Source of the DNA: an uncultured Gammaproteobacteria bacterium
Lineage (GTDB): Bacteria; Patescibacteriota; Patescibacteriia; Magasanikbacterales; UBA10003
Direction of reading: 5' to 3'
NCBI GenBank assembly: GCA_964596405.1
Contig: CAZQSS010000002.1
Coordinates: forward strand, 1-57,830
DNA length: 57,830 nucleotides
In this document: one piece after another, positions 8,050-39,656 of the stretch
How the letters are laid out: every line of letters begins with the position of its first letter
Position numbering within the stretch: the first letter of the stretch is position 1
Program-made: the position numbers and the translations under genes
The notes under the pieces: generated by a model
The model's database searches: none
The model's input: the letters and a program-made list of their open reading frames with translations, nothing else
What the model was told of the DNA's origin: nothing

Positions 8050-8143
8050 ATAAGTATGATTCTAATCTACGAATTCTGTGAACGAATCTGCAAATTTGAT
8101 TCGAAACATTCGAAGATTTGTATATTATATCTGTTGATTCGTA
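8050..8143 (-). repeat. About 95-nt intercistronic TACGAATC/TACAAATC repeat family (copy 1)
   Basis: Aligns with 35537-35633, 39557-39656 and 50110-50217. Fills the gap from the uvrA stop to the next start codon. Confidence 0.85.
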
Positions 8144-11005
8144 TCATCTAAAACATTTTTTTAAATATTGTCCGGTATAGCTTCGTTTAATCTTAGAGAC
8201 ATCGCGCGGCGTGCCTTTGGCCACAATCTCGCCGCCCATTTTACCGCCATCCGGCCCCAAATCAATCACCCAATCGGCGCATTTGATCACTTCCAAATTA
8301 TGTTCAATGATCAAAACCGTGTTACCCTTGTCCACTAAACGATTTAATACATTCAGGAGTTGTTTAATGTCTTCAAAATGTAAACCGGTGGTCGGTTCAT
8401 CCAAAATATAAAGAGTCCGGCCGGTGGCGCGGCGGGCTAATTCAGTGGCCAATTTAACGCGCTGAGCTTCACCGCCCGAAAGTTTGGTGGCCGGCTGGCC
8501 CAACTGCAAATAACCCAAACCTACATCGGCTAAAATTCTCAATTTGTCGGCAATAGCCGGCACGTTTCTGAAAAACTCCAAGGCTTCTTCCACGGTCATG
8601 GAAAGAATATCGGCGATGTTCTTACTCTGATAATGAATTTCCAACGCTTCGGCATTATACCGCCGGCCCTGACACTCATCGCATTTAACGTAAACATCGG
8701 CCAAAAACTGCATGGGGATACGCACATAACCTTCGCCGGCGCAGGCTTCGCAACGACCGCCGCCTTTGACATTAAAACTGAACTTGCCGGCTTCGTAACC
8801 GCGCAACTTGGCCTCGGTCACTTCGGTAAAAAGATCGCGGATCAGCGAAAAAACGCCGGTATAAGTCGCCGGATTGGAACGCGGGGTGCGGCCAATCGGC
8901 GCTTGATCAATGCTGATAACTTTGTCAACATTCTCCAGTCCCTTGATGGCTTTATGCTCGGCCGGCAAGGCTTTAGAACGGTAAAAATGCGCGGCCAACG
9001 CTTTGCCCAAAATCTCAACGATCAAAGTGGATTTGCCCGAACCGGAAACTCCGGTCACGCAAACCAATTTGCCCAAAGGAATCTCCACGTCCACGTTTTT
9101 CAAATTAAAAGCCGAGGCTTTTTGAATCTGAATTGTTTTATTATTTCCTTTATGCATTTTCTCCGGTATGGCTATTTCATCGCGTCCGGAAAGATACGCG
9201 CCGGTCAAAGAATTTTTATTTTTTAAAATCTCACTCAGTGTCCCCTGCGCCACAATCTCGCCGCCGTAGACGCCCGCGCCCGGGCCCACATCCATAATAT
9301 AATCGGCGTGGCGCATAATCGTTTCATCGTGTTCTACCACAATCACCGTATTGCCCAAATCGCGCAAGGCTGACAAAGTCTTAATCAATTTTTCCAAATC
9401 GCGGGGATGCAGGCCGATGGACGGTTCATCTAAAATATAAATAACGCCGGTCAGCCCGCTTGAAAGCTGGGTGGAGAGGCGAACGCGCTGGGATTCGCCG
9501 CCGGAGAGGGTAGTGATGGAACGATCCAGCGTCAGATAATCCAAACCGACCTTGGATAAATCATCCAACCTTTTTAAACTTTCTTTGAGAATCGGCGCGG
9601 CAATAGAAGCGTGGGAGGCTATATGAAAATGATCTTTGTGAGAGGATTTTTTGCCCGCTATGGCCTTTAACACCTCGCTGAAAAATTCGCGCGCTTCGGT
9701 GACCGAAAAAGCCGTCATCTCGCTGATATTTTTATCAAAAACCTTAACCGCCAAAGATTCCACTTTTAAACGGCGGCCGCTGCAAAGAGGACAAATCATT
9801 TCCCGCATATACTCCTCAATCTCTTTGCGAACATAATCGGATTGGGTTTCCCGATGTTTGTTTTCCAAATTGGCCATCACGCCCTCAAACTTTACCGACT
9901 TGCCTTCCACCGTATAACAAACATCATTAGTGCCATTGAGGATTAAATCAATTATTTTTTTGGGCAAATCTTTTATGGCCACATCCATGGGGAACTTGTT
10001 GGTATGAGCCGCGGCCTCAAGCAGTTTCAGATACCAATTTTGATTGCCGGTAATGCGCATCCAGGGCTGAATCGCGCCCTCAGCCAAGGTCAAACGCGGG
10101 TTGGGAATAACGAGTGCCGGGTCAACTTTCAGAACAATGCCCAAACCGGTGCATTTGGGGCAAGCGCCATAAGGACTGTTGAAAGAAAAATTATGCGGTT
10201 CCAAATCTTCAAACCGGCGGCCGCACTTCGGACAGCGCCAATGAGTAGAAAAAAGGGTTTCCTTCCTGCCCGCCGAAGAGGCGGGTTTCTTATTCCAGAC
10301 GGCAATCACCAAGCCATTGCCCAATTCCAAAGCATCATCCACCATTTTGGTGACGGCCCCGCTGTTTTTACCGCTCACTTCACCCAAAACAATATCCAAA
10401 TTACAAAGTACTTCTTCTTGATGACGCCTGGCCAAAAACTCATCCGCGGTACAAAACTTGCCTTCAAAACGCAATTCTTTAATTTCCCTGCTTTCCACGA
10501 TTTTTTCCAAATCACCCAAATTCTTTTTTTCAAAACGGCTGAGCGGCGCCAAAATTTTCACCCGCTCTCCGGCCATCACCAAACTTCTGACGGCCTCAAT
10601 AATTTGGCCGGCGGTAAATTTTCGCGTTTCCTCGCCGCAATCCGGACAAGTAATTTTACCGATACGCGCGTAAAGCAAACGGATATGATCGTAGATTTCG
10701 GTAATGGTGCCCACAGTGGAACGCGGATTCTGGCTGACCGAATGCTGATCAATGGCAATGGTCGGCGAAAGCCCCTGCACCTCGTCCACATCCGGCTTAT
10801 CCTGCATTTCCATAAACTGGCGGGCATAAGACGACAATGATTCGGCGTAACGGCGCTGGCCTTCGGCATAAATCGTGTCAAAAGCCAAAGAAGACTTGCC
10901 CGAACCGGACAAACCCGTAATCACCACCAGTTTATTTTTTGGAATAGATAAACTGATGTTTTTTAAATTGTTGACGCGAGCGCCGCGAATGATGATTTTG
11001 TCCAT
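8144..11005 (-). CDS. uvrA: Excinuclease ABC subunit A
   Basis: 953 aa with two ABC ATPase modules ([22 protein letters not shown]), zinc-finger cysteines and LSGGE signatures. Confidence 0.97.
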
Positions 11006-16113: not shown

Positions 16114-17475
16114 TTAATTATTAATTGTTTTCTTGTATTCCGGCGGGGAGATTTGCAAATCAATGCGGTTTAAATCGCGCGGAAAAAGAGTGGCTTGTTT
16201 AACGTTATCAACGCCCAAAAGCTTGGCGGTCAGTCGCTCCAAACCAATCGCCAATCCGCCTTCGGGCGGCATGCCATATTTAAAAGCCTGCAGATAAAAA
16301 GAAAAATTAGCCGGATCCAATCCCCATTTCCTGATATTTTCCACCAACTGATTATAATCGTTGAGACGTTGACCACCGGTGGTAATTTCCACCCCGCGGA
16401 AAAGCAAATCAAAACTCTTGGTATATTCCGGATCGGTTTCATCCGGATATGTATACATGGGACGCTTCTTGGTCGGATAATGCGTGATGAAAATAAAATC
16501 AGAATCGTACTTTCTTTTCGCGTACTCCCCCAGCCAAACCTCATCGGACGGATCCAAATCCGGTTCGGCCGTGTGGTCAATCCCGGCTTCTTTTTTAATT
16601 AGCTCTTGAGCCTCTTTTAATTTTAAAAAAGGAATTTCTTTGGGCACAACCGGCAACTCCGCCCCCAACGTCTGGAGTTCGTCTGAAAAATTTTTCTTCA
16701 GATAATCCATCATGTGGGCCAATAAATCGCGTTCCAGCCGCATTACATCGGTGTGATCTTTGATAAAACCGAATTCCAAATCCAATGAAGTGTATTCGTT
16801 GATGTGACGGGTGGTGGCGTGTTGCTCGGCGCGAAAAACATTACCGACCGTAAAGACGCGCTCAAAAACACCGACCATAATTTGTTTGTAAAATTGCGGG
16901 CTCTGGGCTAAAAACGCCGGATGGCCAAAATAATCCACTTTAAAAACATTGGCGCCACCTTCGGTTGAGGCGCCGACAATTTTGGGACATTGAAATTCCG
17001 TAAAATCCCGACTAATTAAAAAAGACCGAAAAGCTTGCACCAGCGCGGCCTGAATCTTAAAAATCGCGCGGTTTTTTTCGGTCCGCAAGGTCAAGGGCAA
17101 CATATCCAAATAAACATCCAAACCCATTTTCTCGTCCGCCGGATCCAGCGGTAGCGGCTCAGCCTTGGCCAAAATTTTAAAACCCTTGGCCAACACTTCA
17201 ATCGCCCCGGTAACCAAATTGGGATTAACACTCTTTTCGTTACGTTTTTGGACAATACCTGAAATCGACACCACAAATTCCGTTCGTACTTCTTTGGCGG
17301 CGTCATAGTCCGCCCCCATCTCCGACGGCGCGCAAATAACCTGTACCAAACCGCTTCGGTCGCGAATATCCAAAAAAATAATCTTACCTAAATTGCGCCG
17401 GGCGCGCACCCACCCTTCCAACAATACCTCTTGGCCGATTTTTTGAGTTGTTTCCAAGATTAAAGTTCTCTCCAT
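16114..17475 (-). CDS. aspS: Aspartyl-tRNA synthetase, archaeal/eukaryal type
   Basis: 453 aa. Class II motif 2 FRAEQHATTRHINEYTSLDLEF, motif 3 GGLAIGLERL, and an N-terminal OB fold. Confidence 0.9.
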   Translation of the reverse strand: MERTLILETTQKIGQEVLLEGWVRARRNLGKIIFLDIRDRSGLVQVICAPSEMGADYDAAKEVRTEFVVSISGIVQKRNEKSVNPNLVTGAIEVLAKGFKILAKAEPLPLDPADEKMGLDVYLDMLPLTLRTEKNRAIFKIQAALVQAFRSFLISRDFTEFQCPKIVGASTEGGANVFKVDYFGHPAFLAQSPQFYKQIMVGVFERVFTVGNVFRAEQHATTRHINEYTSLDLEFGFIKDHTDVMRLERDLLAHMMDYLKKNFSDELQTLGAELPVVPKEIPFLKLKEAQELIKKEAGIDHTAEPDLDPSDEVWLGEYAKRKYDSDFIFITHYPTKKRPMYTYPDETDPEYTKSFDLLFRGVEITTGGQRLNDYNQLVENIRKWGLDPANFSFYLQAFKYGMPPEGGLAIGLERLTAKLLGVDNVKQATLFPRDLNRIDLQISPPEYKKTINN

Positions 17476-17608: not shown

Positions 17609-18424
17609 TCAGAGCGACTTGGGCGGAATAAGGAGCTGTAAGAGAGCTTCACCGGCTTCCAGGATTTCCTGGGTGTCACCGGCTGGCGCGCAACCTTGCT
17701 TGATCTCCAGGTAACGAACCAACAAGCTGTGAACGGCCGTGACTTGCTGGAGCGTCAGGTAGGGGCTAGGTCCGAGCTGACTGTCAGAGAGGGCACTCGC
17801 CGCCATATCCACGTGATTCAGAAGGTACTGGTTGGTCATGTCCAGGTTGTGGTTCGGCTCACTGCAGACGCCGCCGACAGCTCGGCCGGCCCGCCACTCA
17901 ATCACCCGCTGCACCAGGTTGGTCAGGCCAAAATGAGTAACACTCATCATAGCGACATTGCCGGTGACCGAGGAGGTGCTGGCGGTGAAGAAAAGCGGGT
18001 CTTTGAGATTCAGAGACGGATTGGCCGACGGCAGCAGAGTGACAAGTGCGCTTTCCTCAACTGTCTGGGTGTTGCCGCTCACCGTGCCAATCTTGACCAT
18101 GATCTTGTGATACAAAATCCTGTCACCGACCGGCTTGACTTCCACGCTGCCGACGAAATTATAAAGCTCGCTCGGCATGGCCGGTTTGCCCTTTGCTTCG
18201 AAAGTCACCACCTGCTCGACGAATGCGTCCGGGTAATCCATGCTGTGCATGACGAGCGTCAGCTGCGGATTTTCCTCGGGCCTGGCTGCCTCCGGCGGAT
18301 CAACCTTCGGGGCCGGTTTTTCCACGACCGGCAGAACAGTTTGGGCCGACCGCACGGTCACACAACCGCTGCCGAAAACCGTTATCAAAAGAACCGTCGT
18401 CACCGCCAGCATCATCTTTTTCAT
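17609..18424 (-). CDS. Lipoprotein, paralog family member 1
   Basis: Signal peptide and lipobox (VFGSGC). The C-terminal block ..PYLTLQQVTAVHSLLVRYLEIKQGCAPAGDTQEILEAGEALLQLL aligns with 25301-26062 and 26059-26835. G+C-rich. Confidence 0.75.
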   Translation of the reverse strand: MKKMMLAVTTVLLITVFGSGCVTVRSAQTVLPVVEKPAPKVDPPEAARPEENPQLTLVMHSMDYPDAFVEQVVTFEAKGKPAMPSELYNFVGSVEVKPVGDRILYHKIMVKIGTVSGNTQTVEESALVTLLPSANPSLNLKDPLFFTASTSSVTGNVAMMSVTHFGLTNLVQRVIEWRAGRAVGGVCSEPNHNLDMTNQYLLNHVDMAASALSDSQLGPSPYLTLQQVTAVHSLLVRYLEIKQGCAPAGDTQEILEAGEALLQLLIPPKSL

Positions 18425-18505: not shown

Positions 18506-18646
18506 GCATAGAAAGATTTGATATAATACTAGTAGTTTTGATAGCTTTTTGGCTAAACCCACACCGATTTCGTCTGTAGTAATTATTTTGATTCATAAGT
18601 CATTTATGAATTAAAGACGATGACCAAATTTTAGCATATTCACACT

Positions 18647-18832
18647 TAAACAGTCAAAAGTTCGCTTATCAGTAGTTACGCAAAATCGCGCGAGCGCTTT
18701 TGCGTAATGGGCGGCGGTTCCCTCCAGTTCCGCTCGTCGCTCGCGCGACTTCGCGTAACTGTCGGATATCTGTAATTTTGCCTTGCCGAGCGCGAGCTCG
18801 TCGGCAAAACTCCAGATATCCGCCGCCCATTA
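18647..18832 (+). repeat. Inter-cassette structured element, copy 1 (degenerate 5' module plus full core 18675-18832)
   Basis: The core is GTTACGCAAAATCGCGCGAGCGCTTTTGCGTAATGGGCGGCGGTTCCCTCCAGTTCCGCTCGTCGCTCGCGCGACTTCGCGTAACTGTCGGATATCTGTAAT-[variable hairpin]-CTCCAGATATCCGCCGCCCATTA. Confidence 0.9.
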
Positions 18833-18910
18833 TACGCCATACATTTTATCATTTTGATATTTTTTCACTCTGCTTTTTGTGAGTGATTGACGAATAAAAC
18901 AATATTTTTT
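18830..18910. repeat. Cassette 1 private inverted repeat, left arm
   Basis: TTATACGCCATACATTTTATCATTTTGATATTTTTTCACTCTGCTTTTT..TTGACGAATAAAACAATATTTTTT matches the reverse complement of 20153-20229. Confidence 0.85.
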
Positions 18911-18954
18911 AGTAATTTGATTAAGATAAAGGTACAAAGAATTATTCAACATTT

Positions 18955-20148
18955 ATGTCCTTGGAACGCGAGCCACAACAACATAATGAAAATGAGACTC
19001 GTGACAAATTCAATGCAAAATTGTCTGAATTGGCTGTCTATTGGTTAAAACTAAAAAATTTATGGGAACAAACGGCAACATCAAGAGACCCCCTTACTAA
19101 CAATGATCCCGACACAGAAATCGCGGGATTAGAAGAAAAAATTGCACCCATCCTCATCGAACTGCTCAATGCCAGCGGAGCGGAGCGTGAACTGCTGTAT
19201 GAAAAAGCTAGAAAAATTCGCGATGAAAATACTGACAAAAAAATTCAAGTTCGAGGTGTTATAGAGGTTAGCAATATCTGTCGTGCCAATTGTCTATATT
19301 GCCCAATGCGTCGAGATAATTTACCCACTACTGAAAAAATACGAATTACTCCAAAACAGATTTATAATCAGGTTAAGGCGACCAAAAAAGAAGGCATTAC
19401 AAATTTTTTCATGCAAAGTGGCGAGGATCCACAAATAATTCCCGTGGTATTAGAAGCATTATCGCTGATTAAAAATGACCCAGAAACGCGAGATATTAAA
19501 ATTGTCTTAAATTTAGGCGACCATTTGCCGAACACATATTCCAAACTGCACGAGGCTGGCGCTGATGGTTATTTAATAAAACACGAAACCTCAGATAAAG
19601 AATTACACCGTCTGATGCGACCTCATTCTACAGTTGAACAAAGAGTATCTCATTTACTACAAGCGCGCCAAGCTGGCATGCACATTGGTACTGGTGTAAT
19701 TGTCGGGTTGCCCGGTCAAACCGATCAATCATTAGCACAGGATATAATTTTTGCCGGTCGCATCGGATCTGAACAGATGGTTAGTTGCTCACCATTTATA
19801 CCGGGTGAAACCACTCCACTTGCAGGAGAACAAGCAGGAGATTTTTTCAAAACACTAAACATGATCGCAATATACCGCCTTCTCTTTCCAGCCGCCCGCA
19901 TTCCTGCAGTAAGTAATTTAGATTCTGCCAAACTCAGTACACGACCACCGGATTTAAAAATTAGCGGACAATCGGCAGGAATAAATGCCGGAGCAAATGG
20001 AATAACCATCAACGTGACACCACCAGCGATTCGCGATATCTATAGCATATACGATGTTAAAACAAGAGAAATTGTTGATTTTTCAAAAGCTAAAAGGATT
20101 GAAAAAGAAACAGGATTAACGCTTGATTTAGATGACAAAGATACATAG
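18955..20148 (+). CDS. Radical SAM enzyme, HydE/PylB/BioB-like subfamily (orphan)
   Basis: CxxxCxxC motif in VIEVSNICRANCLYCPMRRDN. Also MQSGEDP, EAGADGYLIKHETSD..LHRLMRP, GVIVGLPGQT, SPFIPGETTPLA and AIYRLLFPAARIPA, which are all HydE-like blocks. Has an unassigned N-terminal extension of about 95 aa. Confidence 0.85.
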   Translation: MSLEREPQQHNENETRDKFNAKLSELAVYWLKLKNLWEQTATSRDPLTNNDPDTEIAGLEEKIAPILIELLNASGAERELLYEKARKIRDENTDKKIQVRGVIEVSNICRANCLYCPMRRDNLPTTEKIRITPKQIYNQVKATKKEGITNFFMQSGEDPQIIPVVLEALSLIKNDPETRDIKIVLNLGDHLPNTYSKLHEAGADGYLIKHETSDKELHRLMRPHSTVEQRVSHLLQARQAGMHIGTGVIVGLPGQTDQSLAQDIIFAGRIGSEQMVSCSPFIPGETTPLAGEQAGDFFKTLNMIAIYRLLFPAARIPAVSNLDSAKLSTRPPDLKISGQSAGINAGANGITINVTPPAIRDIYSIYDVKTREIVDFSKAKRIEKETGLTLDLDDKDT

Positions 20149-20152
20149 AGAC

Positions 20153-20229
20153 AAAAAAATATTGTTTTATTGACGAGCGAAAAAAGCAGAGTGAAAAATA
20201 ATAATTAGGAAAAAATGTACAGCGTATAA
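20153..20229. repeat. Cassette 1 private inverted repeat, right arm
   Basis: Reverse complement of the left arm (..AAAAAAATATTGTTTTATTGAC..AAAAAAGCAGAGTGAAAAATA..GTACAGCGTATAA). Confidence 0.85.
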
Positions 20230-20448
20230 CAGCCGATATGCGGTTCCGCTCCGCTACACCCATATGCTGACGCACATCGCATATCGGCGAACGTTACGCA
20301 AAATCGCGCGAGCGCTTTTGCGTAATGGGCGGCGGTTCCCTCCAGTTCCGCTCGTCGCTCGCGCGACTTCGCGTAACTGTCGGATATCTGTAATCCCGCT
20401 CGCCCCCCGCGAGGGGCCGGCGGGACTCCAGATATCCGCCGCCCATTA
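20226..20448 (+). repeat. Inter-cassette structured element, copy 2 (5' hairpin module plus core 20293-20448)
   Basis: ATAACAG-CCGATATGCGG...CGCATATCGGCG-AAC followed by a core almost identical to copy 1. Confidence 0.9.
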
Positions 20449-20468
20449 TCTGAAATTGTAAATGCCCC
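20446..20468. repeat. Cassette 2 private inverted repeat, left arm (contains the ATG at 20462)
   Basis: TTATCTGAAATTGTAAATGCCCC, compared with the reverse complement of 21244-21266. Confidence 0.85.
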
Positions 20469-21238
20469 CTTTATTTATTGAAATTAAAAAATTATATTCG
20501 CTTCTTAATCCAAAAACTATGATACATAATCACGACATCAACAAACTTCCTGCCGATGGATATTTAGTGCTTCCTCTATCCATGAGCCGCTTGGCGAATG
20601 GCAAGGGTCAAAGCCCCGAAGAATGTTATGAGGTAATACAATATTTCGAGAATAAAGTCAGCCAAGTTGGAATAGATTTTTTGTTTATTTATACCAATGG
20701 ATTGTATTACAACAATGACGAATCTGCTTTGTCGGTCAGAAAAAAGACTAATCAAGCTATGATTGATCACAGAAACGCATTATTAAAATTAATGATAAAA
20801 AACAAAAAATATATTCCCCAAGCAGCTCATTTTATTCCGTGGGATTATATAATTTTGAATTCTCCGCAATTTTCTGATTATTATCAAAAATTAATTAAGC
20901 TGAAAGAAAATGACGAACAATTCAAAATTACTTTAGAGGAAGCACTAAATGGAAGAGAAAACACAGAAGCAAATATAAATTTTTTAATAGAGGAAATCGT
21001 TGTCACTTACTTGATTAGGCAAAAGTTAATTGAATTTCCCAAAACTCTCGTCAAAAATGATAAATTTCGCTTAGTGATTTATCCTGGAACATATTTGAAG
21101 GCTGATTGTTATCAATGGCAGAAAAAAGCATTGCCACAATTTGAAACATCAAGCGAAAATAGCAACCCATATTATGCGTCACAGTATGATTTTGCCAAAA
21201 AAATATTAAACAGTTTTGATGAAATTCAATTACAATAA
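20462..21238 (+). CDS. Hypothetical 258-aa protein, possibly cyclodipeptide-synthase-like (tentative)
   Basis: No strong motif. The order and spacing of LVLPLSMSRL (near residue 40), IDFLFIYTNG, WDYIILNSPQFSDYY, INFLIEEIVV (near residue 175) and LVIYPG (near residue 205) resemble the CDPS blocks GISxxNSxFS / YVxxExP / xYH. This is based on recall only. An alternative start is M20 at 20519. Confidence 0.3.
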   Translation: MPPLFIEIKKLYSLLNPKTMIHNHDINKLPADGYLVLPLSMSRLANGKGQSPEECYEVIQYFENKVSQVGIDFLFIYTNGLYYNNDESALSVRKKTNQAMIDHRNALLKLMIKNKKYIPQAAHFIPWDYIILNSPQFSDYYQKLIKLKENDEQFKITLEEALNGRENTEANINFLIEEIVVTYLIRQKLIEFPKTLVKNDKFRLVIYPGTYLKADCYQWQKKALPQFETSSENSNPYYASQYDFAKKILNSFDEIQLQ

Positions 21239-21243
21239 GGAGT

Positions 21244-21266
21244 GGGGCATTTACAACATCAGATAA
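21244..21266. repeat. Cassette 2 private inverted repeat, right arm
   Basis: GGGGCATTTACAACATCAGATAA, 5 nt after the stop codon. Confidence 0.85.
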
Positions 21267-21510
21267 CACGGCATATCTGCAAGGGCTAAAGCCACATTTC
21301 GCCACGAAAATTATATAAATAAAGGAGGTGGCGAAACGTCAGATATGCCGAAACGTTACGCAAAATCGCGCGAGCGTTTTCGCGTAATGGGCGGCGGTTC
21401 CCTCCAGTTCCGCTCGTCGCTCGCGCGACTTCGCGTAACTGTCGGATATCTGTAATCCCGCTCGCCCCCCGCGAGGGGCCGGCGGGACTCCAGATATCCG
21501 CCGCCCATTA
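21263..21510 (+). repeat. Inter-cassette structured element, copy 3 (5' hairpin module plus core 21355-21510)
   Basis: ATAACAC-GGCATATCTG...CAGATATGCC-GAAAC followed by the core. Both stems of the 5' module differ from copies 2 and 4 by compensatory changes. Confidence 0.9.
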
Positions 21511-21575
21511 GCGAAAATAAATTACTTTTTCCCGTCCGATTTTGACGATTTTAATTGTAGGGGGCCGAATTTTTG
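21508..21575. repeat. Cassette 3 private inverted repeat, left arm
   Basis: TTAGCGAAAATAAATTACTTTTTCCCGTCCGATTTT..GGGGGCCGAATTTTT matches the reverse complement of 24046-24110. Confidence 0.85.
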
Positions 21576-21633
21576 TAATTGTTGACGAGGGGAACAAACG
21601 GAATAGCCACCTTTTGTAGGGTGGCTATCATTT

Positions 21634-21662
21634 TTGACTTAAAACTGTAAAAAAGGTAAAAT
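21634..21662 (+). promoter_or_regulatory. Candidate promoter of the R-M operon (TTGACT-17-TAAAAT)
   Basis: TTGACTtaaaactgtaaaaaaggTAAAAT, preceded by the hairpin ATAGCCACC-ttttgtag-GGTGGCTAT at 21603-21628. Confidence 0.5.
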
Positions 21663-21688
21663 TAAACCATAAAAACCATTTATCACTT

Positions 21689-22480
21689 ATGAAATATCCT
21701 AAAGATTTTACCAACAAATTCATTACTGGTGATTGTATTAAAATCATGAAACAAATACCGGACGGCTCGGTTGATTTAGTTGTTACCTCGCCTCCCTACA
21801 ATCTCAAAAACTCCACAGGCAACGGCATGAAAGACGGCCGTGGCGGTAAATGGTCTGGAGCGGCGCTGGTAAATGGCTATGATAACTACGACGACAACAT
21901 GCCGCATGACGAATACGCTAAGTGGCAACGCAATTGTTTAACCGAAATGTTTAGGGTTGTTAATGATAATGGTGCTATTTTTTATAATCACAAATGGCGC
22001 GTCCAAGATGGATTACTCCAAGATCGACAAGATATTGTTAGTGGTTTTCCGGTAAGACAAATTATTATTTGGCGACGCAAAGGCGGAATCAATTTTAACG
22101 CTGGCTATTTTTTGCCAACCTATGAAGTAATTTATCTTATCGCAAAAAATAATTTCAAATTAGTATCAAAAGCCAACGCCCACGGCGATGTGTGGGAATT
22201 TACCCAAGATATGAACAACCCTCACCCCGCCCCATTTCCGGTCGCGCTGATTGAACGAATCGTTTCCTCCACCAACGCCCAAACTATTTTGGACCCATTT
22301 ATGGGTTCAGGTACTACGGCCGTTGTAGCTAAAGCATTGGGACGAAAATTTATTGGCATTGATATTTCACCTAAATATTGCGAAATGGCTGAGGAACGAC
22401 TCGGACGAAATGTAAAACACAACGAAATGGAACTTCTAAAACCTCAAATGAGTATTTTTAAACTACAACGCGCCGTATGA
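21689..22480 (+). CDS. DNA methyltransferase, beta-class N4-cytosine/N6-adenine (SPPY motif)
   Basis: Motif IV VVTSPPYN lies N-terminal and motif I DPFMGSGTTAVVA C-terminal. Overlaps the endonuclease gene through ATGA. Confidence 0.9.
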   Translation: MKYPKDFTNKFITGDCIKIMKQIPDGSVDLVVTSPPYNLKNSTGNGMKDGRGGKWSGAALVNGYDNYDDNMPHDEYAKWQRNCLTEMFRVVNDNGAIFYNHKWRVQDGLLQDRQDIVSGFPVRQIIIWRRKGGINFNAGYFLPTYEVIYLIAKNNFKLVSKANAHGDVWEFTQDMNNPHPAPFPVALIERIVSSTNAQTILDPFMGSGTTAVVAKALGRKFIGIDISPKYCEMAEERLGRNVKHNEMELLKPQMSIFKLQRAV

Positions 22481-23265
22481 AAATTTACACCAAACCACAG
22501 TTAATCACAAAACTAAAAGAAATCTCAAAACAAGGTTGGATACCAAACGGCCGACATGGCAATGCCGGCGGAATTGGTAACACTTTGGAAGACTTGTTGG
22601 GAATCGAAGAAAATAATTTGCCAATTCCAAACGCCGCCGAATGGGAACTTAAAACACAACGGATCGCTACAAGCTCGCTCACTACTCTTTTTCATACTGA
22701 GCCATCACCACGCGCGGTAAAATTTGTACCACAAATATTACTACCACTTTATGGTTGGAAACACGACGGAGCAGGAAAACAATACCCTAAGAACGAGATG
22801 AGTTTCCGACAAACAATTCATGGGCACAGTCCAAGCGACCGTGGCTTTATTGTAAAAATTGACCGCGCAGAACAAAAGGTTTTAATTTCTTTTGACGCCT
22901 CAAAAGTGGCCAAAAAACATAAAATTTGGTTAAAATCCGTCAAAAAGAAAGTCGGCAACTTAAACGAACTCAATCCCCAACCTTATTGGGGTTTTGATGA
23001 TCTGGGACACAAAGCCGGCACCAAACTTCTGAACTGTTTTTATGTCCAAGCCAAAGTGAAAAAAGAAAAAGGCAAAGAATTTTACCATTACACAAAAGTA
23101 ATGATGTTACAAAAATTCAGTTTTGAAAAATTTTTAAACGCTCTTGATGAGGGCAAAATTCTAGTGGACTTTGACGCTCGCACCGGCCATAACCACGGCA
23201 CAAAATTTCGGATGAGACAAGATTGTTTGCCGATGTTGTATGAAAAAACCACCTCAATAATATAA
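22477..23265 (+). CDS. Type II restriction endonuclease, MvaI/BcnI (MutH-like) family
   Basis: N-terminus MKIYTKPQLITKLKEISKQGW and the blocks GNTLEDLLGIEENNLPIPNAAEWELKT and HYTKVMML resemble BcnI/MvaI as I recall them. Translationally coupled to the methyltransferase gene. Confidence 0.75.
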   Translation: MKIYTKPQLITKLKEISKQGWIPNGRHGNAGGIGNTLEDLLGIEENNLPIPNAAEWELKTQRIATSSLTTLFHTEPSPRAVKFVPQILLPLYGWKHDGAGKQYPKNEMSFRQTIHGHSPSDRGFIVKIDRAEQKVLISFDASKVAKKHKIWLKSVKKKVGNLNELNPQPYWGFDDLGHKAGTKLLNCFYVQAKVKKEKGKEFYHYTKVMMLQKFSFEKFLNALDEGKILVDFDARTGHNHGTKFRMRQDCLPMLYEKTTSII

Positions 23266-23274
23266 AACAATAAA

Positions 23275-23985
23275 TTGCTAACCAAATTTATGAAAAAAAT
23301 CATAATTTATTTAAAATTTTTTTGGGTGGCAATACTTTTGTTTATATTATCTATAATTTGCTGGTACTACTTACCAGAAAATTATAACAATTTCAAAGGC
23401 AATTTAATCGCTTCTATTCTCGGCGTTGGAATCGCAATTTTTACTGCTGAGGGTTTTAAAAATATTAACGACCATAGACGAATCAAAAAGAACTTCGGAT
23501 TTTTAAGGCTTATTGTAATCCCTTATCTAAAAAATCAAACACAAAATTTTATAGATACAGCGAATGGTTTCCAAGATATATGTAATAAAGTACAAGCCGT
23601 CAATTTTATCGCAGTCATATCCAGCATAAATGAAATGAGTAATACATTTGATAAAAGCTGGCTTCAATTAATCTTCTCCCAAGATTTTATTGATGCTATA
23701 AAAACAGATGAACACTTCAATAAAATTTCCCACACTATATTGGAATTATTGTTATTCATAAGTTCAACAACAACATTATCCGCAAACGCAAAAACACTCA
23801 TGTTAAACAATGTCGTCCAACTCGACGAAGAAGCGACCAAAATGTTTATAACAAAAGCACGCGAGTTTAGATCGGCCTTAACCAAAAGTGCTCAAGATTT
23901 ACAGAAATACGTTAATTTACTAGACCAAGAAATGGAATTATTTTTTCGAGAGAATAATGTTATTTACCAAGAATTTGAAAGATGA
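23275..23985 (+). CDS. Membrane-anchored (2 TM) helical protein, unknown function, third gene of the R-M cassette
   Basis: Two N-terminal hydrophobic helices followed by an alpha-helical domain of about 170 aa. An alternative start is MKKII at 23290. Confidence 0.55.
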   Translation: MLTKFMKKIIIYLKFFWVAILLFILSIICWYYLPENYNNFKGNLIASILGVGIAIFTAEGFKNINDHRRIKKNFGFLRLIVIPYLKNQTQNFIDTANGFQDICNKVQAVNFIAVISSINEMSNTFDKSWLQLIFSQDFIDAIKTDEHFNKISHTILELLLFISSTTTLSANAKTLMLNNVVQLDEEATKMFITKAREFRSALTKSAQDLQKYVNLLDQEMELFFRENNVIYQEFER

Positions 23986-24045
23986 TTATACATATTTGGT
24001 GAGGGCGCAATTCACCCCTAACCCCTCTTGCGCCCGCCAACGACG

Positions 24046-24110
24046 AAAAAATTCGGCCCCCCATTATATTTAATAAAATCGAACGGAAAAAAGTAATTTA
24101 CATTCGCTAA
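24046..24110. repeat. Cassette 3 private inverted repeat, right arm
   Basis: AAAAAATTCGGCCCCCC..AAAATCGAACGGAAAAAAGTAATTTACATTCGCTAA. Confidence 0.85.
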
Positions 24111-24405
24111 CAGCCGATATGCGGTTCAAGAAAAAGAGTGTAAAATATTTTCAGCGGATACTCTTTTTCTCTCACCCATATTTCGCACAAATTTAATTTT
24201 AATGGAATGTGCGAAACATCGCATATCGGCGTACATTACGCAAAATCGCGCGAGCGCTTTTGCGTAATGGGCGGCGGTTCCCTCCAGTTCCGCTTGTCGC
24301 TCGCGCGACTTCGCGTAACTGTCGGATATGCGGCGCTTCGCTACATCCCGCCCTCGCCTCGAGCCTTGCGGCTCGGACGGGAAGTCGCATATCCGCCGCC
24401 CACTA
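24108..24405 (+). repeat. Inter-cassette structured element, copy 4 (expanded 5' hairpin module plus core 24235-24405)
   Basis: TAACAG-CCGATATGCGG...CGCATATCGGCG-TAC followed by the core. The 3' stem is GGATATGCG/CGCATATCC instead of GGATATCTG/CAGATATCC, which is a compensatory change. Confidence 0.9.
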
Positions 24406-24428
24406 GGCGAAATTTATTTAATTTTTTT
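24404..24428. repeat. Cassette 4 private inverted repeat, left arm
   Basis: TAGGCGAAATTTATTTAATTTTTTT, immediately 5' of the ATG at 24429. Confidence 0.75.
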
Positions 24429-24734
24429 ATGCATAAAGATGTTAGGCCTATTATTAAAGCAACAATATTTATAATTGTTGTGCTGTTAATAGCATGTCCT
24501 TTCTGGTTAAGAATTTTAATTAAAACTGCAGACAAAATGAGCATGAGTATGGGTGACGATAGTATGTTAGAGACTAAGGTCGCTGCCTGGATAATATTAA
24601 TCGGGGTCTTGTTAGTTTGGTTAATTCCTTGGTTGATCCAAATTATCTTATCTGTATACATTTTTAATAAAAATTCTCAACAATCTGATGCAATACTCAA
24701 AACTCTAAAAGATATAAAGAAAAAAATTAAATAA
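24429..24734 (+). CDS. Small (101-aa) two-TM membrane protein
   Basis: Start trimmed to MHKDVRP because the upstream part of the tracked ORF lies in the repeat. Two hydrophobic helices and a Lys-rich tail. Confidence 0.55.
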   Translation: MHKDVRPIIKATIFIIVVLLIACPFWLRILIKTADKMSMSMGDDSMLETKVAAWIILIGVLLVWLIPWLIQIILSVYIFNKNSQQSDAILKTLKDIKKKIK

Positions 24735-24745
24735 ACATCGCATAA
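24720..24745. repeat. Cassette 4 private inverted repeat, right arm (overlaps the last codons and the stop)
   Basis: AAAAAAATTAAATAAACATCGCATAA. Confidence 0.75.
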
Positions 24746-24765
24746 CAGGGGGATATCCGATTCCG
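24742..24765 (+). repeat. Terminal partial copy of the inter-cassette element (first approx 24 nt of the 5' module only)
   Basis: ATAACAGGGGGATATCCGATTCCG, compared with ATAACAGCCGATATGCGGTTCCG in copy 2. Confidence 0.7.
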
Positions 24766-24834
24766 ATACATTGTACGAAATTTTAAAAAACAAATTTTTT
24801 ATTTTTATATAGAGCCCTTTTGAAATTTTTTTTT

Positions 24835-24872
24835 GGAAATAAAGAAGACCCGCCTTTGTAAGCACGGGTCTT
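24835..24872 (-). terminator. Rho-independent terminator of the lipoprotein operon
   Basis: Hairpin AGACCCG..CGGGTCT followed by a T-rich run on the minus strand. Confidence 0.7.
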
Positions 24873-24892
24873 TATGTTTGTGAGCGGATTGT

Positions 24893-25300: not shown

Positions 25301-26062
25301 TTAGTTTGCCAAAATCTGATAAATCAGGTTCTGACCCTTCTCCAGCGCCTCAACAGCGTTACTGTCTTTCAGGCAGTTGTGCTGAGCCTGCAAATAGTCC
25401 TTGATAACCCGGTTGGCCTCCAGCATCTCGCCGAATTTCAGGTACGGCGCGCCGTCTTTGAGAAAACCGTCGGCCATTCTTTCGGCCGTGCGGAAAACAA
25501 CCAAGCTCACGGTGATGGACGACGGGTCATACCGCTCATCCGTAGCTCTTGTGCCTTCATTGCAGATATCCTCGCGCGGCATCACATAGCCCTCTTCAAT
25601 GGCCACCACGTTTTCCGCCAGGATATTGAGCATCAGCCGCGTCGCTTCCATCATCTTGATCTTGTGTTCAAAACCGATGACGGTGGCGGTAAAATCAGCT
25701 GGACCAATAATCTGCCGCGGCCGGCTCATGGGTTCAAGAAAAATCTCGCCCTGGGTAGCCACCACTTCCATGTGTTTGCTATTGACTCCCACCAAGGCGT
25801 CCATGCGGGTGTAAAGCGCCGCCCGATCATCAGCTGAAATTTCCATAGAATGGTCAGTTCGGTTGGTGAAAATCTTTTCGCCCGGGATGTATTGGCCGCC
25901 GTCGCTGATGATGGAATAAGACGCGTAGTGAACCGTAGCCTCGGGGAAATTGATAATAATGGGATCGGGTTCCGTGATCACCAGCGGCTTTTTGGAACAG
26001 CCGCCGATGGCCAGAGTGAAAACCGCGAATGCGATCAAGAAAAAACACGTCAGCTTTTTCAT
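25301..26062 (-). CDS. Lipoprotein, paralog family member 3
   Basis: Start trimmed to MKKLTCFFLIAFAVFTLAIGGC (lipobox). Its ATG overlaps the upstream stop codon (ATGA). Aligns with 26059-26835 (IKMMEATRLMLNILAENV vs IKMMTVTQLLLVYLADRL). Confidence 0.8.
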   Translation of the reverse strand: MKKLTCFFLIAFAVFTLAIGGCSKKPLVITEPDPIIINFPEATVHYASYSIISDGGQYIPGEKIFTNRTDHSMEISADDRAALYTRMDALVGVNSKHMEVVATQGEIFLEPMSRPRQIIGPADFTATVIGFEHKIKMMEATRLMLNILAENVVAIEEGYVMPREDICNEGTRATDERYDPSSITVSLVVFRTAERMADGFLKDGAPYLKFGEMLEANRVIKDYLQAQHNCLKDSNAVEALEKGQNLIYQILAN

Positions 26063-26835
26063 TTCACCTCTCCTTTGTAAAGAAGGTTGAGGAGTTCCTG
26101 AAACTGAATCAGAGCTTCTTCTGTTTCCGTATCGGACAGACAACCGGCTCGGAGAGCAACTACTCGTCGCGTGACTTCCCAAGCGGCCACCACCTCATCG
26201 TATTTGAGATAACGACTGCCGTCGGCCAAACGCGTTGTCGCCAGCCGATCCGCCAGCAGTTGCACCATGCCATCGCTCGGATTGAGATTGGAATCAAATT
26301 CCACCGTGTCCGGGCTCGGACAAACGTATGGCGCAAATTCATAACGCGCCAAACTTTCCAATCGGTCAGCCAGATAAACCAATAAAAGCTGGGTGACAGT
26401 CATCATCTTGATCCTCTCGCCCGCTTCCACAAAAGCGACAAATCTGGCCGGATTGTTGGTCGGGTCTTCAGACCGCGCCTCAACGATTAGAGCGTGCAGT
26501 TCGCGGCCGGCCTCGGCGCCATTGGGGCACCGGATGACCATCCGCTCATCAAGTTGCGACATTTCTTTTTCAATCTTCAACGTCATTCGCAAGTCAGATT
26601 GGCAATTTTCTGTCATCCGATTATTGTAAAACGTCTTAATAGAATACATGACAATCGCTTCGGGGAAAATCAGCGCTTCTGACTGATAGTCGGACTTTTC
26701 CATATACGGCTCGACCCGCCCGCCTGCTTGCGGAGCTTGCGGCGGGGCCGGTTTTGCCAACGCCGGCACAATCGGCGCGCTCGCGCAACCCAGAACAAAA
26801 AACATCGCCCCAAACAACCACATCAGCTTCTTCAT
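26059..26835 (-). CDS. Lipoprotein, paralog family member 2
   Basis: Signal peptide and lipobox MFFVLGC. The C-terminal block DGSRYLKYDEVVAAWEVTRRVVALRAGCLSDTETEEALIQFQELLNLLY is shared with the paralogs. Confidence 0.8.
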   Translation of the reverse strand: MKKLMWLFGAMFFVLGCASAPIVPALAKPAPPQAPQAGGRVEPYMEKSDYQSEALIFPEAIVMYSIKTFYNNRMTENCQSDLRMTLKIEKEMSQLDERMVIRCPNGAEAGRELHALIVEARSEDPTNNPARFVAFVEAGERIKMMTVTQLLLVYLADRLESLARYEFAPYVCPSPDTVEFDSNLNPSDGMVQLLADRLATTRLADGSRYLKYDEVVAAWEVTRRVVALRAGCLSDTETEEALIQFQELLNLLYKGEVK

Positions 26836-28134: not shown

Positions 28135-29421
28135 TCAAGGTTTCAGTCTGTTAATCATGCGGGGAAATGGTATGCTCTCTCTTACGTGTGAGAGGCCGCA
28201 GATCCAGGTGACGAGTCGTTCCAGGCCATAGCCAAAACCCGAGTGCGGCACCGAGCCGTAACGGCGTAAATCCAAATACCATTCAAACGGTTCGCGTTTC
28301 AAACCGAATTCTTTTAAACGCCGGAGCAGGGTTTCGTAATCGTCTTCGCGCTGACTGCCACCGATCACTTCGCCATAACCCTCAGGCGCGAGCAAATCCG
28401 CGCAGAGCGCGCGACTTTCATCTTGCGGATCACGTTTCATATAAAAGGCCTTAATTTTGGCCGGATATTTTTCAACAAATACGGGCTTGTCGTATTCTTT
28501 GGTCAGAGTGGTTTCATCATCCCCGCCTAAATCGTCGTCGGCTTTAATATCCGAACCCAATTTGCGCAATTTTTTAACCGCCTCTTCATGGCTTAACCGA
28601 TAAAACGGTGCTTTGACGTTTTCTAAGGGCTTAACATCGCGTTCTAAAATTTTTAATTCCTCCTGATTGATTTCCAAAACTTTATTGACAATAAAACTGA
28701 CGAGATTTTCCTGGATTTCCAAATTGCCAACGTGCTCCACAAAAGCCATCTCCGCGTCCATCATCCAAAACTCGGTTAAGTGCCGGCGAGTTTTGCTTTT
28801 TTCCGCGCGGAAAACCGGCCCAAAATCAAACACGCGGCCGTGCGAAAAAATCGCCGATTCAATATAGAGCTGGCCGGATTGGGTGAGATAAGCGTTGCCC
28901 TCGTCAAAATATTTCATGCCGAAAAGTTCGGTGGTATTTTCGCAGGAAGTCGGAGTCAAAATCGGCGCGTCAATTTTAATAAAATCGTTCTGATTAAAAA
29001 ATTCATAAGTGGCGTTGATAATGGTATTGCGGACACGCTGAATCGCCCACTGCCGCGGCGCACGCAGCCAAAGGTGGCGAATATCCAAAAGAAAATCCGG
29101 CCCGTGCTCTTTTTTGCCAATCGGGAACTCTTCGGCCAGTTGCACAATTTTCAAATCCCCAACCTGAATTTCAAAAACGCCCGGATGCTTGGGGTGGGCG
29201 CTCACCCGGCCATGGACAATCACCGACGTCTCTACGGTGATTTTTTGCGCCGTTTCCCAAACCGCCTCGGGCACGGATTTTTTATCCACGATCGCCTGGA
29301 CAAAACCCGAACCGTCGCGAATTTGCAAAAACGCGATACTGCCCGAAGAGCGCAGATTGTAAACCCAGCCTTTTAGCTCCACCTCTTTTCCAACTGATAA
29401 TGATAAGTTCTTAATAAACAT
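28135..29421 (-). CDS. asnS: Asparaginyl-tRNA synthetase
   Basis: 428 aa with FRAEKSKTRRHLTEFWMMDAEMAF and GGSQRE...YLDLRRYGSVPHSGFGYGLERLV..IPFPR. Confidence 0.9.
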   Translation of the reverse strand: MFIKNLSLSVGKEVELKGWVYNLRSSGSIAFLQIRDGSGFVQAIVDKKSVPEAVWETAQKITVETSVIVHGRVSAHPKHPGVFEIQVGDLKIVQLAEEFPIGKKEHGPDFLLDIRHLWLRAPRQWAIQRVRNTIINATYEFFNQNDFIKIDAPILTPTSCENTTELFGMKYFDEGNAYLTQSGQLYIESAIFSHGRVFDFGPVFRAEKSKTRRHLTEFWMMDAEMAFVEHVGNLEIQENLVSFIVNKVLEINQEELKILERDVKPLENVKAPFYRLSHEEAVKKLRKLGSDIKADDDLGGDDETTLTKEYDKPVFVEKYPAKIKAFYMKRDPQDESRALCADLLAPEGYGEVIGGSQREDDYETLLRRLKEFGLKREPFEWYLDLRRYGSVPHSGFGYGLERLVTWICGLSHVRESIPFPRMINRLKP

Positions 29422-29477
29422 ATTTTTTCAAAGCTACGCTTTTAATTTAAACTCTAATTTGAAACAAACTGTCTTTT

Positions 29478-35536: not shown

Positions 35537-35633
35537 ATTGAATATGATGCTAATCTACAAATTCTTATATACGAATCTACAAATATAATTTGTAATATTC
35601 GTAGATTTGTATATTATATTCGTTGATTCGTAT
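35537..35633 (-). repeat. About 95-nt intercistronic repeat family (copy 2)
   Basis: The transcribed strand reads GATACGAATCAACGAATATAATATACAAATCTACGAATA..TATTTGTAGATTCGTATA..TAGATTAGCATCATATTCAAT-ATG. It supplies the last codons and stop of rplO and runs to the secY start. Confidence 0.85.
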
Positions 35634-36084
35634 CTTCTATAATTGAGCCGCCGGCTTTTTCTATTTTTTCTTTAGCGCCGGCGGAAACGCGGCAACCGCT
35701 AATTTCCAGTTTCTTGCTTAATTCGCCATTGTTTAATATTTTGACCCCGGCGGTAACATCCGATTGAACTAAAACTCCTTTTTTTATCAATTCCTCCGGT
35801 GTCACTTTTTCTCCATCTTTAAAATGTTTATCCAACTCGCCCAGATTAACCGTGGCGGGTTTAAAATAAATACTTTTAAAACCGCGCGCTTTCGGAATAC
35901 TCAAAAGTAAATGGCGCATGCCTTTTCTTTTCAAGATACCCTTTTTGCTGCCAGTTCTGGCTTTTTGGCCTTTTAAACCGCGGGTACTATAAGTACCGTG
36001 CCCCGAAGCATTGCCGCGACCGAGCAGTTTTCTTTTTTTCTTAGCGCCGAATTTGGGGTTTAAATTGTGTAATCCTATAGTCAT
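35614..36084 (-). CDS. rplO: 50S ribosomal protein L15
   Basis: Sequence match and operon position. It directly follows rpsE with no rpmD between them. Confidence 0.93.
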   Translation of the reverse strand: MTIGLHNLNPKFGAKKKRKLLGRGNASGHGTYSTRGLKGQKARTGSKKGILKRKGMRHLLLSIPKARGFKSIYFKPATVNLGELDKHFKDGEKVTPEELIKKGVLVQSDVTAGVKILNNGELSKKLEISGCRVSAGAKEKIEKAGGSIIEDTNQRI

Positions 36085-39556: not shown

Positions 39557-39656
39557 ATAAAATATGATTCTAATCTACAAATCTTGTGAACGAATCTACG
39601 AATATGATTTGTAGCATTTGTGGATTTGTATATTAAATTTGTTGATTCGTATCGTC
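39557..39656 (-). repeat. About 95-nt intercistronic repeat family (copy 3)
   Basis: Between the rpsQ stop and the rplN start. Aligns with copies 1, 2 and 4. Confidence 0.85.

Follow-up and report, generated by a model that had tools for sequence, protein, structure and literature searches.

The window analysed here is a stretch of 57,830 nucleotides, taken at its full length, from the chromosome of an uncultured member of the Patescibacteria (candidate phyla radiation, CPR; contig CAZQSS010000002.1 of assembly GCA_964596405.1). A GC-rich element occurs in four copies within its AT-rich gene region; the cores of these copies start at 18676, 20294, 21356 and 24236, and copy 1 is without the 5′ module that precedes the core in the others. 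A preliminary description of copy 2 (20226–20448) had taken 5′ module, core and 3′ module for one conserved structured element, with compensatory base changes and alternative helices that suggested a conformational switch. We find that the copies belong to an array (18676–24781) made up of four mini-cassettes devoid of open reading frames (ORFs) and four gene blocks unrelated to one another, which take turns along the + strand. Each gene block between copies has a pair of inverted repeats of its own, one at either end and directly next to the copies. The 5′ module (20224–20296) is the end of the upstream cassette, and the core plus 3′ module (20294–20448) is a separate ORF-less cassette of 152 nt. 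Very probably, the element spans the junction region of an integron-type gene-cassette array in this Patescibacteria chromosome, and we think it just as likely that, rather than one structured RNA, it comprises two attC-like sites with a mini-cassette between them, in an array without an integrase.

Anatomy of the array and of its sister contigs

Seven full attC-like sites and one collapsed site lie between 18753 and 24781. The features of the array are given below, with modules and copies numbered as in the preliminary description.

18592..18675, + strand: attI-like remnant at the left array boundary, aligned to the recombinase–attI intergenic region of complete elements
18676..18829, + strand: core mini-cassette copy 1, ORF-less, with its own attC-like site at 18753-18832 (the 3′ module)
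18830..20293, + strand: cassette A, with a HydE/BioB-like radical S-adenosylmethionine gene (18955-20148) and terminal inverted repeats at 18830-18878 and 20181-20229
20224-20296, + strand: attC-like site of cassette A, the 5′ module of copy 2
20294..20445, + strand: core mini-cassette copy 2, the bulk of the element first described, with its own attC-like site at 20371-20448
20446..21355, + strand: cassette B, with a gene of unknown function (20462/20519-21238) and terminal repeats TTATCTGAAATTGTAAATGCCCC and GGGGCATTTACAACATCAGATAA
21261-21358, + strand: attC-like site of cassette B, the 5′ module of copy 3
21356..21507, + strand: core mini-cassette copy 3, with its own site at 21433-21510
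21508..24235, + strand: cassette C, a type II restriction-modification system plus one gene of unknown function (N4/N6 methyltransferase, 21689-22480; MvaI/BcnI endonuclease, 22477-23265; 236-aa protein of unknown function, 23275-23985)
24105-24238, + strand: attC-like site of cassette C, the 5′ module of copy 4
24236..24402, + strand: core mini-cassette copy 4, with its own site at 24313-24405
24403..24781, + strand: cassette D and right array boundary, with a 100-aa membrane-type ORF (24432-24734) and terminal repeats at 24404-24435 and 24713-24744
24736-24781, + strand: collapsed terminal site after cassette D, CATCGCATAAC AG GGGGATATCCG ATTCC GATAC ATTGTACGAAAT

The core mini-cassettes are 152–167 nt long, and their copies are 97–100% identical. 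Copy 2 begins TTACGC and ends ...CCCA; its start, TTACGCAAAATCGCGCGAGCG, pairs with its end, CGCTCGCGCGACTTCGCGTAA (helix H2, below), and an internal TTTTGCGTAATGGGCGGCGG pairs with the joined end and start (helix H1). Its site consists of R″ GCGTAAC, L″ CGGATATCTG, one hairpin, L′ CAGATATCCG, CCGCCC and A|TTA. The terminal repeats of cassette C (21508–21543 and 24075–24110) extend, by eye, to ~70 nt.

A metagenome scan returned three contigs (L001–L003) from Hainich groundwater wells, in the aquifer from which the window's ultra-small bacterium also comes. They contain the window's cassettes in different orders; L003 also shares the right boundary of the array. On L001, two junctions join a site of the 5′-module type straight to the next cassette, with no core between them (...AAACGTTA|TACGCC), and on L003 the core comes directly after this upstream site (...AAACGTTA|CGCAAAA). 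Because the sister contigs show these alternative junctions, the parts are separable and the element has two of them, so that the idea of a single conserved unit, or of 5′ module and core as one piece, had to be given up. By our reading of the window and L001–L003, six sequences, all different, are found ahead of the core, and its 3′ module leads into six different cassettes. The core is found only in the Hainich population and is absent from every other Patescibacteria array examined; a scan of the Genome Taxonomy Database (GTDB) with a 22-mer from the core gave no match, and neither did a blastn search of phage and plasmid collections or an exact-pattern scan of viral contigs for the element. 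Exact-protein look-ups of the window's cassettes led only to short, repeat-broken contigs.

Beyond the collapsed site, at 24770–24890, the window has a further cassette-type start (ATTGTACGAAAT), which may be the remnant of a cassette; there is nothing after it but AT-rich sequence and a hairpin (AAGACCCGCC...GGGTCTT) that adjoins a convergent 121-aa gene.

Pairing within the sites and the strand that folds

The sites share a layout: R″ (N4-AAC), a spacer of 2–3 nt, a 10-bp L″ arm, a variable region of 35 to ~400 nt (35–401), the complementary L′ arm, a spacer of 5–7 nt and R′ ((G/A)TT-N4). With a structural detector we obtained 68 distinct junctions, of which one was later excluded as a chance match. 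Across 53 sites, 92.5% of the cells in the L-box helix are paired, 7 of the 10 pairs have changed on both sides, the covariation score was reached by none of 500 shuffles, and RNAalifold recovers the helix unaided. As this set had been picked for complementarity, detection was repeated from the R flanks alone, and at fixed offsets 50 of 68 candidates then formed 8 or more of the 10 Watson-Crick pairs; 13 distinct L″ sequences were represented. Both ends of cassette B have changed together between orthologues, which read TTATCTG...CAGATAA in the window and TTAGGTG...CACCTAA in L013, a related array described below, with two more matched changes. Hidden Markov models (HMMs) of the 5′ and 3′ halves, built from non-Hainich sites only, give no match in the 57.8-kb window other than at the terminal site and the 5′ modules; the 5′-half model matches at 20218–20244 (E 7.9e-5) and, at the terminal site, at 24733–24748, and the 3′-half model at 20272–20296 (E 0.0065).

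The succession of boxes that characterizes attC sites, R″ (RYYYAAC)-L″...L′-R′ (GTTRRRY) with conserved AAC and GTT, is present, with L boxes that covary and with window sites of the form TAAC...(G/A)TTA. Canonical attC sites are ~57–141 nt long and have a roughly symmetric unpaired central spacer and extrahelical bases. Our sites span 73 to ~450 nt, the core's own site (75–93 nt) being the only one within the usual size range, and their geometry is not canonical: the spacers measure 2–3 versus 5–7 nt, the variable region is of the length given above, and the extended R stem contains a conserved 2-nt mismatch. Long sites, such as those of L013, L023, L056, L062 and others, have a nearly invariant unpaired CACC(C/T)A(A/C)AT between two inner hairpins (window 20258–20266 and 24171–24179) and an ATTATA element in the second hairpin; we know of no such conserved interior in canonical attC sites.

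Each cassette start can pair with the end of the same cassette over ~22 nt, and over up to ~85 nt in the window, but with the end of its neighbor not beyond GTT. When 40 cassettes were mapped, start and own end were 68–100% complementary at positions 1–9 and 78–98% at positions 12–22, with a conserved mismatch at positions 10–11, of which position 11 was never complementary; start and upstream cassette's end were only 17–34% complementary at positions 13–22. Since TT at positions 2–3 pairs with both partners and the switch takes effect at position 4, we place the crossover at GTT or directly beside it. This pattern is the one expected for circular cassettes cut at G|TT. Computationally, the switch of partner after GTT and the junctions ...GTTA|TACGCC and ...GTTA|CGCAAAA agree with the integron crossover, G|TT in R′, by which a cassette starts with the TTRRRY that comes from its attC. 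The helices covary because each cassette carries both L-box arms and a start complementary to its own end.

All ten pairs of arms listed in the preliminary description are exact reverse complements where they had been placed. In copy 2 these include TTACGCAAAA/TTTTGCGTAA at 20294/20316, GTTACGC/GCGTAAC at 20293/20371, TCGCGCGAGCG/CGCTCGCGCGA at 20304/20356 and TAATGGGCGGCGG/CCGCCGCCCATTA at 20323/20436. The stem around the variable hairpin is GGATATCTG/CAGATATCC in copies 1–3 and GGATATGCG/CGCATATCC in copy 4 (24324/24386), where it forms the covaried L box of a site with a longer variable hairpin. Copies 2 and 4 have CCGATATGCG/CGCATATCGG as the outer stem of the 5′ module, where copy 3 has GGCATATCTG/CAGATATGCC; an inner stem is TTTCGCCAC/GTGGCGAAA in copy 3 and TTTCGCACA/TGTGCGAAA in copy 4. 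The 251-nt region around copy 2 folds with −66.1 kcal/mol on the + strand (z −6.3) and −79.6 kcal/mol on the − strand (z −8.05), and on neither strand was any of 200 dinucleotide shuffles as stable. The compensatory changes are real, and they show selection for pairing rather than for a protein. The covariation between copies compares the recombination sites that belong to different cassettes, not orthologous copies of one fold. The two CGGATATSYG hairpins that had been proposed as protein-binding sites are indeed best read as such, being the predicted L boxes of two attC-like sites.

Which strand folds? In DNA folding, the bottom strand was the more stable one in 57 of 62 sites, by a mean of 3.8 kcal/mol (Wilcoxon p 6.5e-10). 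In H2 and at the conserved position-11 pair, G·T on the bottom strand corresponds to A·C on the top, and H2 is uninterrupted on the bottom strand only. The 4×4 internal loop once assigned to this helix (AAAA against CTTC) has to be revised accordingly by strand: on the + strand it reads A·C, A-T, A-T, A·C, whereas the − strand has a continuous helix with two G·T pairs, and enforcing H2 on that strand gives a stem of 21 pairs. On the strength of these folding models, we lean toward the view that the sites act as the folded bottom strand. The + strand has a negative GC skew across the window, and most of the long ORFs scanned with Pfam are on the − strand, as is a block that we took, without scanning it, for a cluster of ribosomal-protein, EF-Tu and EF-G genes. 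From this it can be weakly surmised that the bottom strand of the sites is the lagging-strand template, which would be more often single-stranded.

In the core, H2 (GTTACGC-AAAA-TCGCGCGAGCG with CGCTCGCGCGA-CTTC-GCGTAAC) is the terminal inverted repeat. When the end of the core is joined to its start, the resulting CCGCCGCCCA|TTACGCAAAA is perfectly complementary to the internal TTTTGCGTAATGGGCGGCGG, giving H1, a helix of 20 bp. H1 excludes H2, and the circular fold with H1 is 11–12 kcal/mol more stable than that with H2 enforced. The mutually exclusive helices of the preliminary description are therefore borne out, in that two helices compete for TTACGCAAAA, and one of them, H2, is the terminal inverted repeat that all cassettes of this family possess. 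When the cassette end is joined to the start, the local hairpin and the pairing of TAATGGGCGGCGG with CCGCCGCCCATTA, both likewise present, turn out to be halves of a single perfect helix of 20 bp, not separate stems. A diverged core variant on L001 keeps the local hairpin by means of two compensatory pairs (TTCGGCAAAA/TTTTGCCGAA versus TTACGCAAAA/TTTTGCGTAA). The ends of the core share the form of gene-cassette ends, and scans for promoter and terminator consensus sequences found none inside any core copy. We are slightly inclined to regard the core as a self-propagating, gene-less mini-cassette private to this population. Its private 20-bp helix, by competing with the recombination fold, may control the mobility of the cassette itself.

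Recombinases and related arrays in other Patescibacteria

Searches with phmmer, using IntI1 and XerD as queries, were run against the array loci and the window. Tyrosine recombinases were found beside the arrays in L066, L071, L043 and L034, and later in L074 and L083/L084. In at least five different elements, the recombinase gene is divergent from the cassettes and a conserved attI-like TGTCAATAGGTTCG...|GTT lies between the two, an arrangement of attI beside a divergent integrase of which the window has only the remnant at 18592–18675. The left boundary of the window's array aligns with the recombinase–attI intergenic region of L066, L074, L071, L043 and L034, with 28 invariant columns, and it contains, in order, TTCATA (where complete elements have the start codon of the recombinase), GTCAAAAGTTCG and the junction GTA|GTT, with no recombinase gene after. 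As this alignment extends down to TTCATA and no recombinase was found, the gene has been deleted from the window's array. Pfam, NCBIfam and PADLOC, applied to the flanking and cassette proteins, identified no recombinase or transposase, and no conserved accessory gene was found beside the recombinase in the array loci.

The array-linked recombinases are 54–61% identical to one another and exceed the cut-off of the NCBIfam model NF040815 (XerA_Arch, "site-specific tyrosine recombinase/integron integrase"). With TIGR02249, the integron-integrase model, they score 206–227 bits, under the cut-off of 265, and match in two stretches. Alignment with Pyrococcus abyssi XerA (4A8E) gives 151 bits in one stretch, and alignment with VchIntIA (2A3V) gives 150.7 bits in two, leaving VchIntIA residues 183–244 unaligned. 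At the IntI-specific domain of IntI1 the recombinases are gapped (25 and 11 residues), as is XerD; a C-terminal RSPL motif is common to the recombinases, IntI1 and VchIntIA. An additional domain around patch III is a feature of integron integrases (Messier and Roy, 2001, as cited in PMC9668308), and the domain that defines a strict integron is not present here. A protein search returned many close relatives in Patescibacteria, with 5,764 proteins at E ≤ 1e-40, a number that certainly includes general Xer proteins.

The IntI-specific additional domain contacts the extrahelical bases of folded attC. Since the recombinases described here lack it, their recognition of folded single-stranded DNA is an assumption on our part. 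The starts of cassettes on L001 (TTATGTGAAAT) and at 20446 in the window (TTATCTGAAAT) resemble the XerD arm of E. coli dif (TTATGTTAAAT), and L′ (CGCATA...) resembles the XerC arm (...CGCATAA); we treat both likenesses as leads only, which would fit a Xer-like recombinase.

Arrays of the same kind occur well beyond the Hainich wells. A homologue of the cassette-B protein with 85% identity is encoded in L013, the end of a 633-kb contig of a metagenome-assembled genome (MAG), within an array that has 19 junctions of the same design as the window (...ACATCACCTAAC | AC | CGCGTATGCGG ... ~150 nt ... CGCATACGCG | TATAC | GTTAGGTGAAAT...). ACCTAAC and GTTAGGT, present in L013 and other loci, are the textbook inverse-core and core sites of integrons. 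A GTDB scan with the L″ motif gave 55 loci, of which 25, judging by record titles or by the presence of multi-site arrays, are from Patescibacteria-type MAGs, three of these on the contig of L013; among the 25 are Kaiser-, Komeili-, Morani-, Pace- and Saccharibacteria, and the remaining loci look like chance single matches. The architecture of the window's sites recurs in at least 19 further Patescibacteria MAG loci, and sequence comparisons of this kind place the array in a family of integron-like elements that is widespread among Patescibacteria.

Cassettes with matching terminal repeats are found in the arrays of separate MAGs, which come from separate studies (L066:5823–6388 and L013:4695–5394; also L001, − strand, at about 2010–1540, and L013:4123–4530), which suggests that cassettes may be exchanged between Patescibacteria. 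The cassette-B protein family (window 20462–21238, + strand) has 149 matches at E ≤ 0.001, with CPR bacteria among the named members. A member with 74% identity is encoded in the genome of a Pacearchaeota archaeon, of the DPANN group, outside any array (L016:10001–10726), and homologues in Kerfeldbacteria, like those in Pacearchaeota, are not in arrays. This distribution suggests that the family may have moved across domains.

The array of the window is flanked by lipoprotein-like genes without a family match (17609–18424, 25301–26182 and 26059–26835, all on the − strand), the first and third of which have a repeated sequence of the N-terminal region in common. A 271-aa ORF upstream of the array was considered as a recombinase candidate and rejected, as it encodes a lipoprotein-like protein. 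Two paralogues of a class II Asp/Asn-type tRNA synthetase, one of which is named aspartate–tRNA(Asn) ligase in a source record, are located 11 kb apart on either side of the array (16114–17475 and 28135–29421, both on the − strand). A tRNA-Ile gene with the anticodon TAT lies at 1263–1334 (− strand, 74.2 bits); bacteria usually decode AUA with a modified CAT anticodon, and a TAT tRNA-Ile is unusual. Three to four copies of an AT-rich intergenic repeat (ATTCG.A..ATTCGTAGATTTGTATATTATAT..GTTGATTCGTATC), which may be a promoter or regulatory region, are found at 8052–8161, 35541–35650, 39560–39669 and 50161–50223, and short intergenic repeats rich in AGTTCAAA and TTTCGGATTT units occur at 29477–29537/30808–30868 and 12455–12511/30362–30418.

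Alternative explanations and implications

How might such an array work? The sites would function as folded hairpins, most likely of the bottom DNA strand. A tyrosine recombinase would bind their R and L boxes and cut at the conserved (G/A)TT or beside it; cassettes would be released as circles and inserted again, either at attI or at some other site. With the gene lost from the window, recombination there would need a copy of the recombinase elsewhere. Clusters of at least two attC sites with no integrase nearby are known as CALINs (clusters of attC sites lacking integron integrases), and the window, with its seven full and one collapsed attC-like sites and no recombinase, is of this form.

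The likeness to integrons and CALINs extends to mostly single-gene cassettes in one orientation, imperfect inverted repeats of the R″-L″...L′-R′ type with AAC and GTT, a divergent tyrosine recombinase by an attI-like site, crossover at G|TT, cassette order that varies between strains, the presence of the same cassettes in different genomes, and a cargo mostly of unknown function plus a restriction-modification system. Unlike integrons, the Patescibacteria arrays have a recombinase without the IntI-specific domain and sites with asymmetric spacers, conserved internal motifs and, in the long ones, two or more hairpins. Canonical integron cassettes share only the 7-bp R box, whereas cassette ends in Patescibacteria are complementary over ~22 nt, or up to ~85 nt in the window, with the conserved 2-nt mismatch. 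The system works like an integron but departs from one in two defining features, the IntI-specific domain and the canonical geometry of attC. Archaeal integrons resemble it in forming arrays in uncultured lineages with small genomes, including DPANN, and in having been proposed as platforms for cross-domain transfer, but they retain both the additional domain of IntI and the canonical attC fold (Ghaly et al., 2022, PMC9668308), neither of which is true of the Patescibacteria recombinases and sites. The sequence-conserved attC family repeated along the array also recalls the Vibrio cholerae repeats (VCRs), a homogeneous family of attC sites in a chromosomal integron, although our sites are conserved across several CPR lineages rather than one genus and are longer and more structured.

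The affinity of the recombinase lies equally with Xer proteins. Like archaeal XerA, it passes the NF040815 cut-off and aligns with P. abyssi XerA in one piece; unlike the Xer/dif system, its gene lies beside an attI-like site and a cassette array, not a single chromosomal dif. Xer-related recombinases of candidate phyla have been placed in a subgroup, "Cand", that was not linked to cassettes (Smyshlyaev et al., 2021, PMC8138268). A precedent for a Xer-type enzyme acting on a hairpin of single-stranded DNA, in which paired arms recreate binding sites around an imperfectly paired center, may be the phage CTX-φ. Its integration by XerCD reportedly uses a folded single strand that forms a dif-like site, as Val and colleagues are said to have found in 2005, but CTX-φ has a single phage attachment site and no multi-cassette platform with attI.

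Could the sites be recombined as duplex DNA by a Xer-type recombinase, as at dif sites or in the pdif modules of Acinetobacter plasmids, with no folded hairpin, so that the array would be a system of Xer modules and not integron-like? A recombinase as close to XerA as to VchIntIA and without the IntI-specific domain would suit such a scheme, and the likeness of cassette starts to a dif arm is a lead in the same direction. However, a Xer/dif site is a compact duplex of ~28 bp, with two 11-bp arms around a center of 6–8 bp. Here the arms are 35–400 nt apart on one strand with no compact ~28-bp site, one strand folds consistently better, and duplex recombination would need neither the covariation of L″ with L′ nor the complementarity of each start to its own end; we consider this explanation quite unlikely. 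It is also conceivable, with a probability in the same low range but slightly higher, that the core is no selfish cassette but is kept for a service in cis to its neighbors: it might, for instance, insulate them, end or process their transcripts by its hairpin, or carry a signal for their expression, all of which would be compatible with a cassette array. Such a role would fit the position of the core before every gene cassette of the window and the very stable hairpins it forms on either strand, but it finds no promoter- or terminator-like consensus in any core, and some cassettes on the sister contigs and all other Patescibacteria arrays examined do without the core. Improbable, in our judgment, is a core that is a non-autonomous transposable element (a miniature inverted-repeat transposable element, MITE, or a derivative of an insertion sequence, IS) targeting the TTA in which recombination sites end, much as IS1111-attC elements and group IIC-attC introns target canonical attC. 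The core is indeed a discrete insertion of 152–167 nt (AACGTTA[core]TTATACGCC when filled, AACGTTATACGCC when empty), with nearly identical copies and TTA at both ends. Yet it begins and ends precisely at the crossover point of cassettes, its termini are built like those of gene cassettes (TT-N4 then AAAT; ACTTC-N4-AAC then the L-box hairpin), Pfam found no transposase in about half of the window's long ORFs, and copies occur only at cassette junctions of the array and the sister contigs, with none elsewhere in the 57.8 kb. The apparent target duplication is the TTA shared at the crossover, and the core does not have the hallmarks of a MITE.

That the whole 223-nt element is one structured noncoding RNA with a conformational switch now seems highly improbable, for all that its strong fold (z −6.3 and −8.05), its two mutually exclusive helices and the compensated core variant of L001 would suit an RNA. 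The modules occur independently, the core's own site is joined to six cassettes, the covariation between copies follows cassette identity, the element is confined to one population, and the fold is weaker on the sense (mRNA) strand. Rfam gave only a tRNA at the gathering threshold in the window, chance-level matches up to E 5 in a permissive scan of the array, and nothing in L013. The covariation probably reflects recombination hairpins of bottom-strand DNA. We see next to no chance that the conserved frame (RKIARALLRNGRRFPPVPLVARATSRNCRI) encodes a small protein. Copy 2 does have an open frame of 65 codons (20264–20461), but the start of this frame is part of the variable 5′ module, and in copy 1 there is only an ORF of 60 codons (18700–18882), initiated with TTG inside the core; there is no conserved start and no Pfam match, and 3 of 4 differences between copies are, by eye, non-synonymous.

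Several observations weigh against a cassette array whose sites fold as the bottom strand. No tyrosine recombinase was found among window ORFs of at least 120 aa, the related recombinases are without the IntI-specific additional domain, and the sites are unlike canonical attC in their length (73 to ~450 nt), asymmetric spacers and conserved internal motifs. The bottom strand is G-rich, which alone favors folding; the wobbles of the L box are ambiguous, with 5 A·C versus 1 G·T at positions 2–10 and position 1 mostly unpaired, and there is one conserved top-strand G·T in the L box. The differing orders of cassettes might be old differences between strains and not ongoing recombination, and the array reading does not account for the core that stands before every gene cassette in the window.

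We found no description of integrons or attC sites in Patescibacteria in the literature; our coverage was incomplete, and a prior description is possible. Tentatively, and with rather more doubt than attaches to the array itself, we suggest that these elements form an undescribed, phylum-wide integron lineage of Patescibacteria with a Xer/XerA-like recombinase, long multi-hairpin attC-like sites and an R box like an arm of dif, which would be either an intermediate between Xer/dif and integrons or an independent reinvention. If the arrays work as proposed, cassette capture and shuffling would be possible without the IntI-specific domain that is now used to define and find integrons, and standard integron searches, which rely on this domain, probably miss these elements. 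An origin of integrons from Xer-like recombinases would become directly testable, given a Xer-like enzyme, an attI-like site and hairpin sites in one system. Annotators of CPR genomes should then not, by default, take GC-rich repeats that lie between genes and covary for RNA genes. Finally, the ultra-small, host-dependent CPR bacteria would possess a dedicated platform for the exchange of accessory and defense genes, a context to which the restriction-modification cassette of the window and a cassette protein family with a close DPANN relative would belong.

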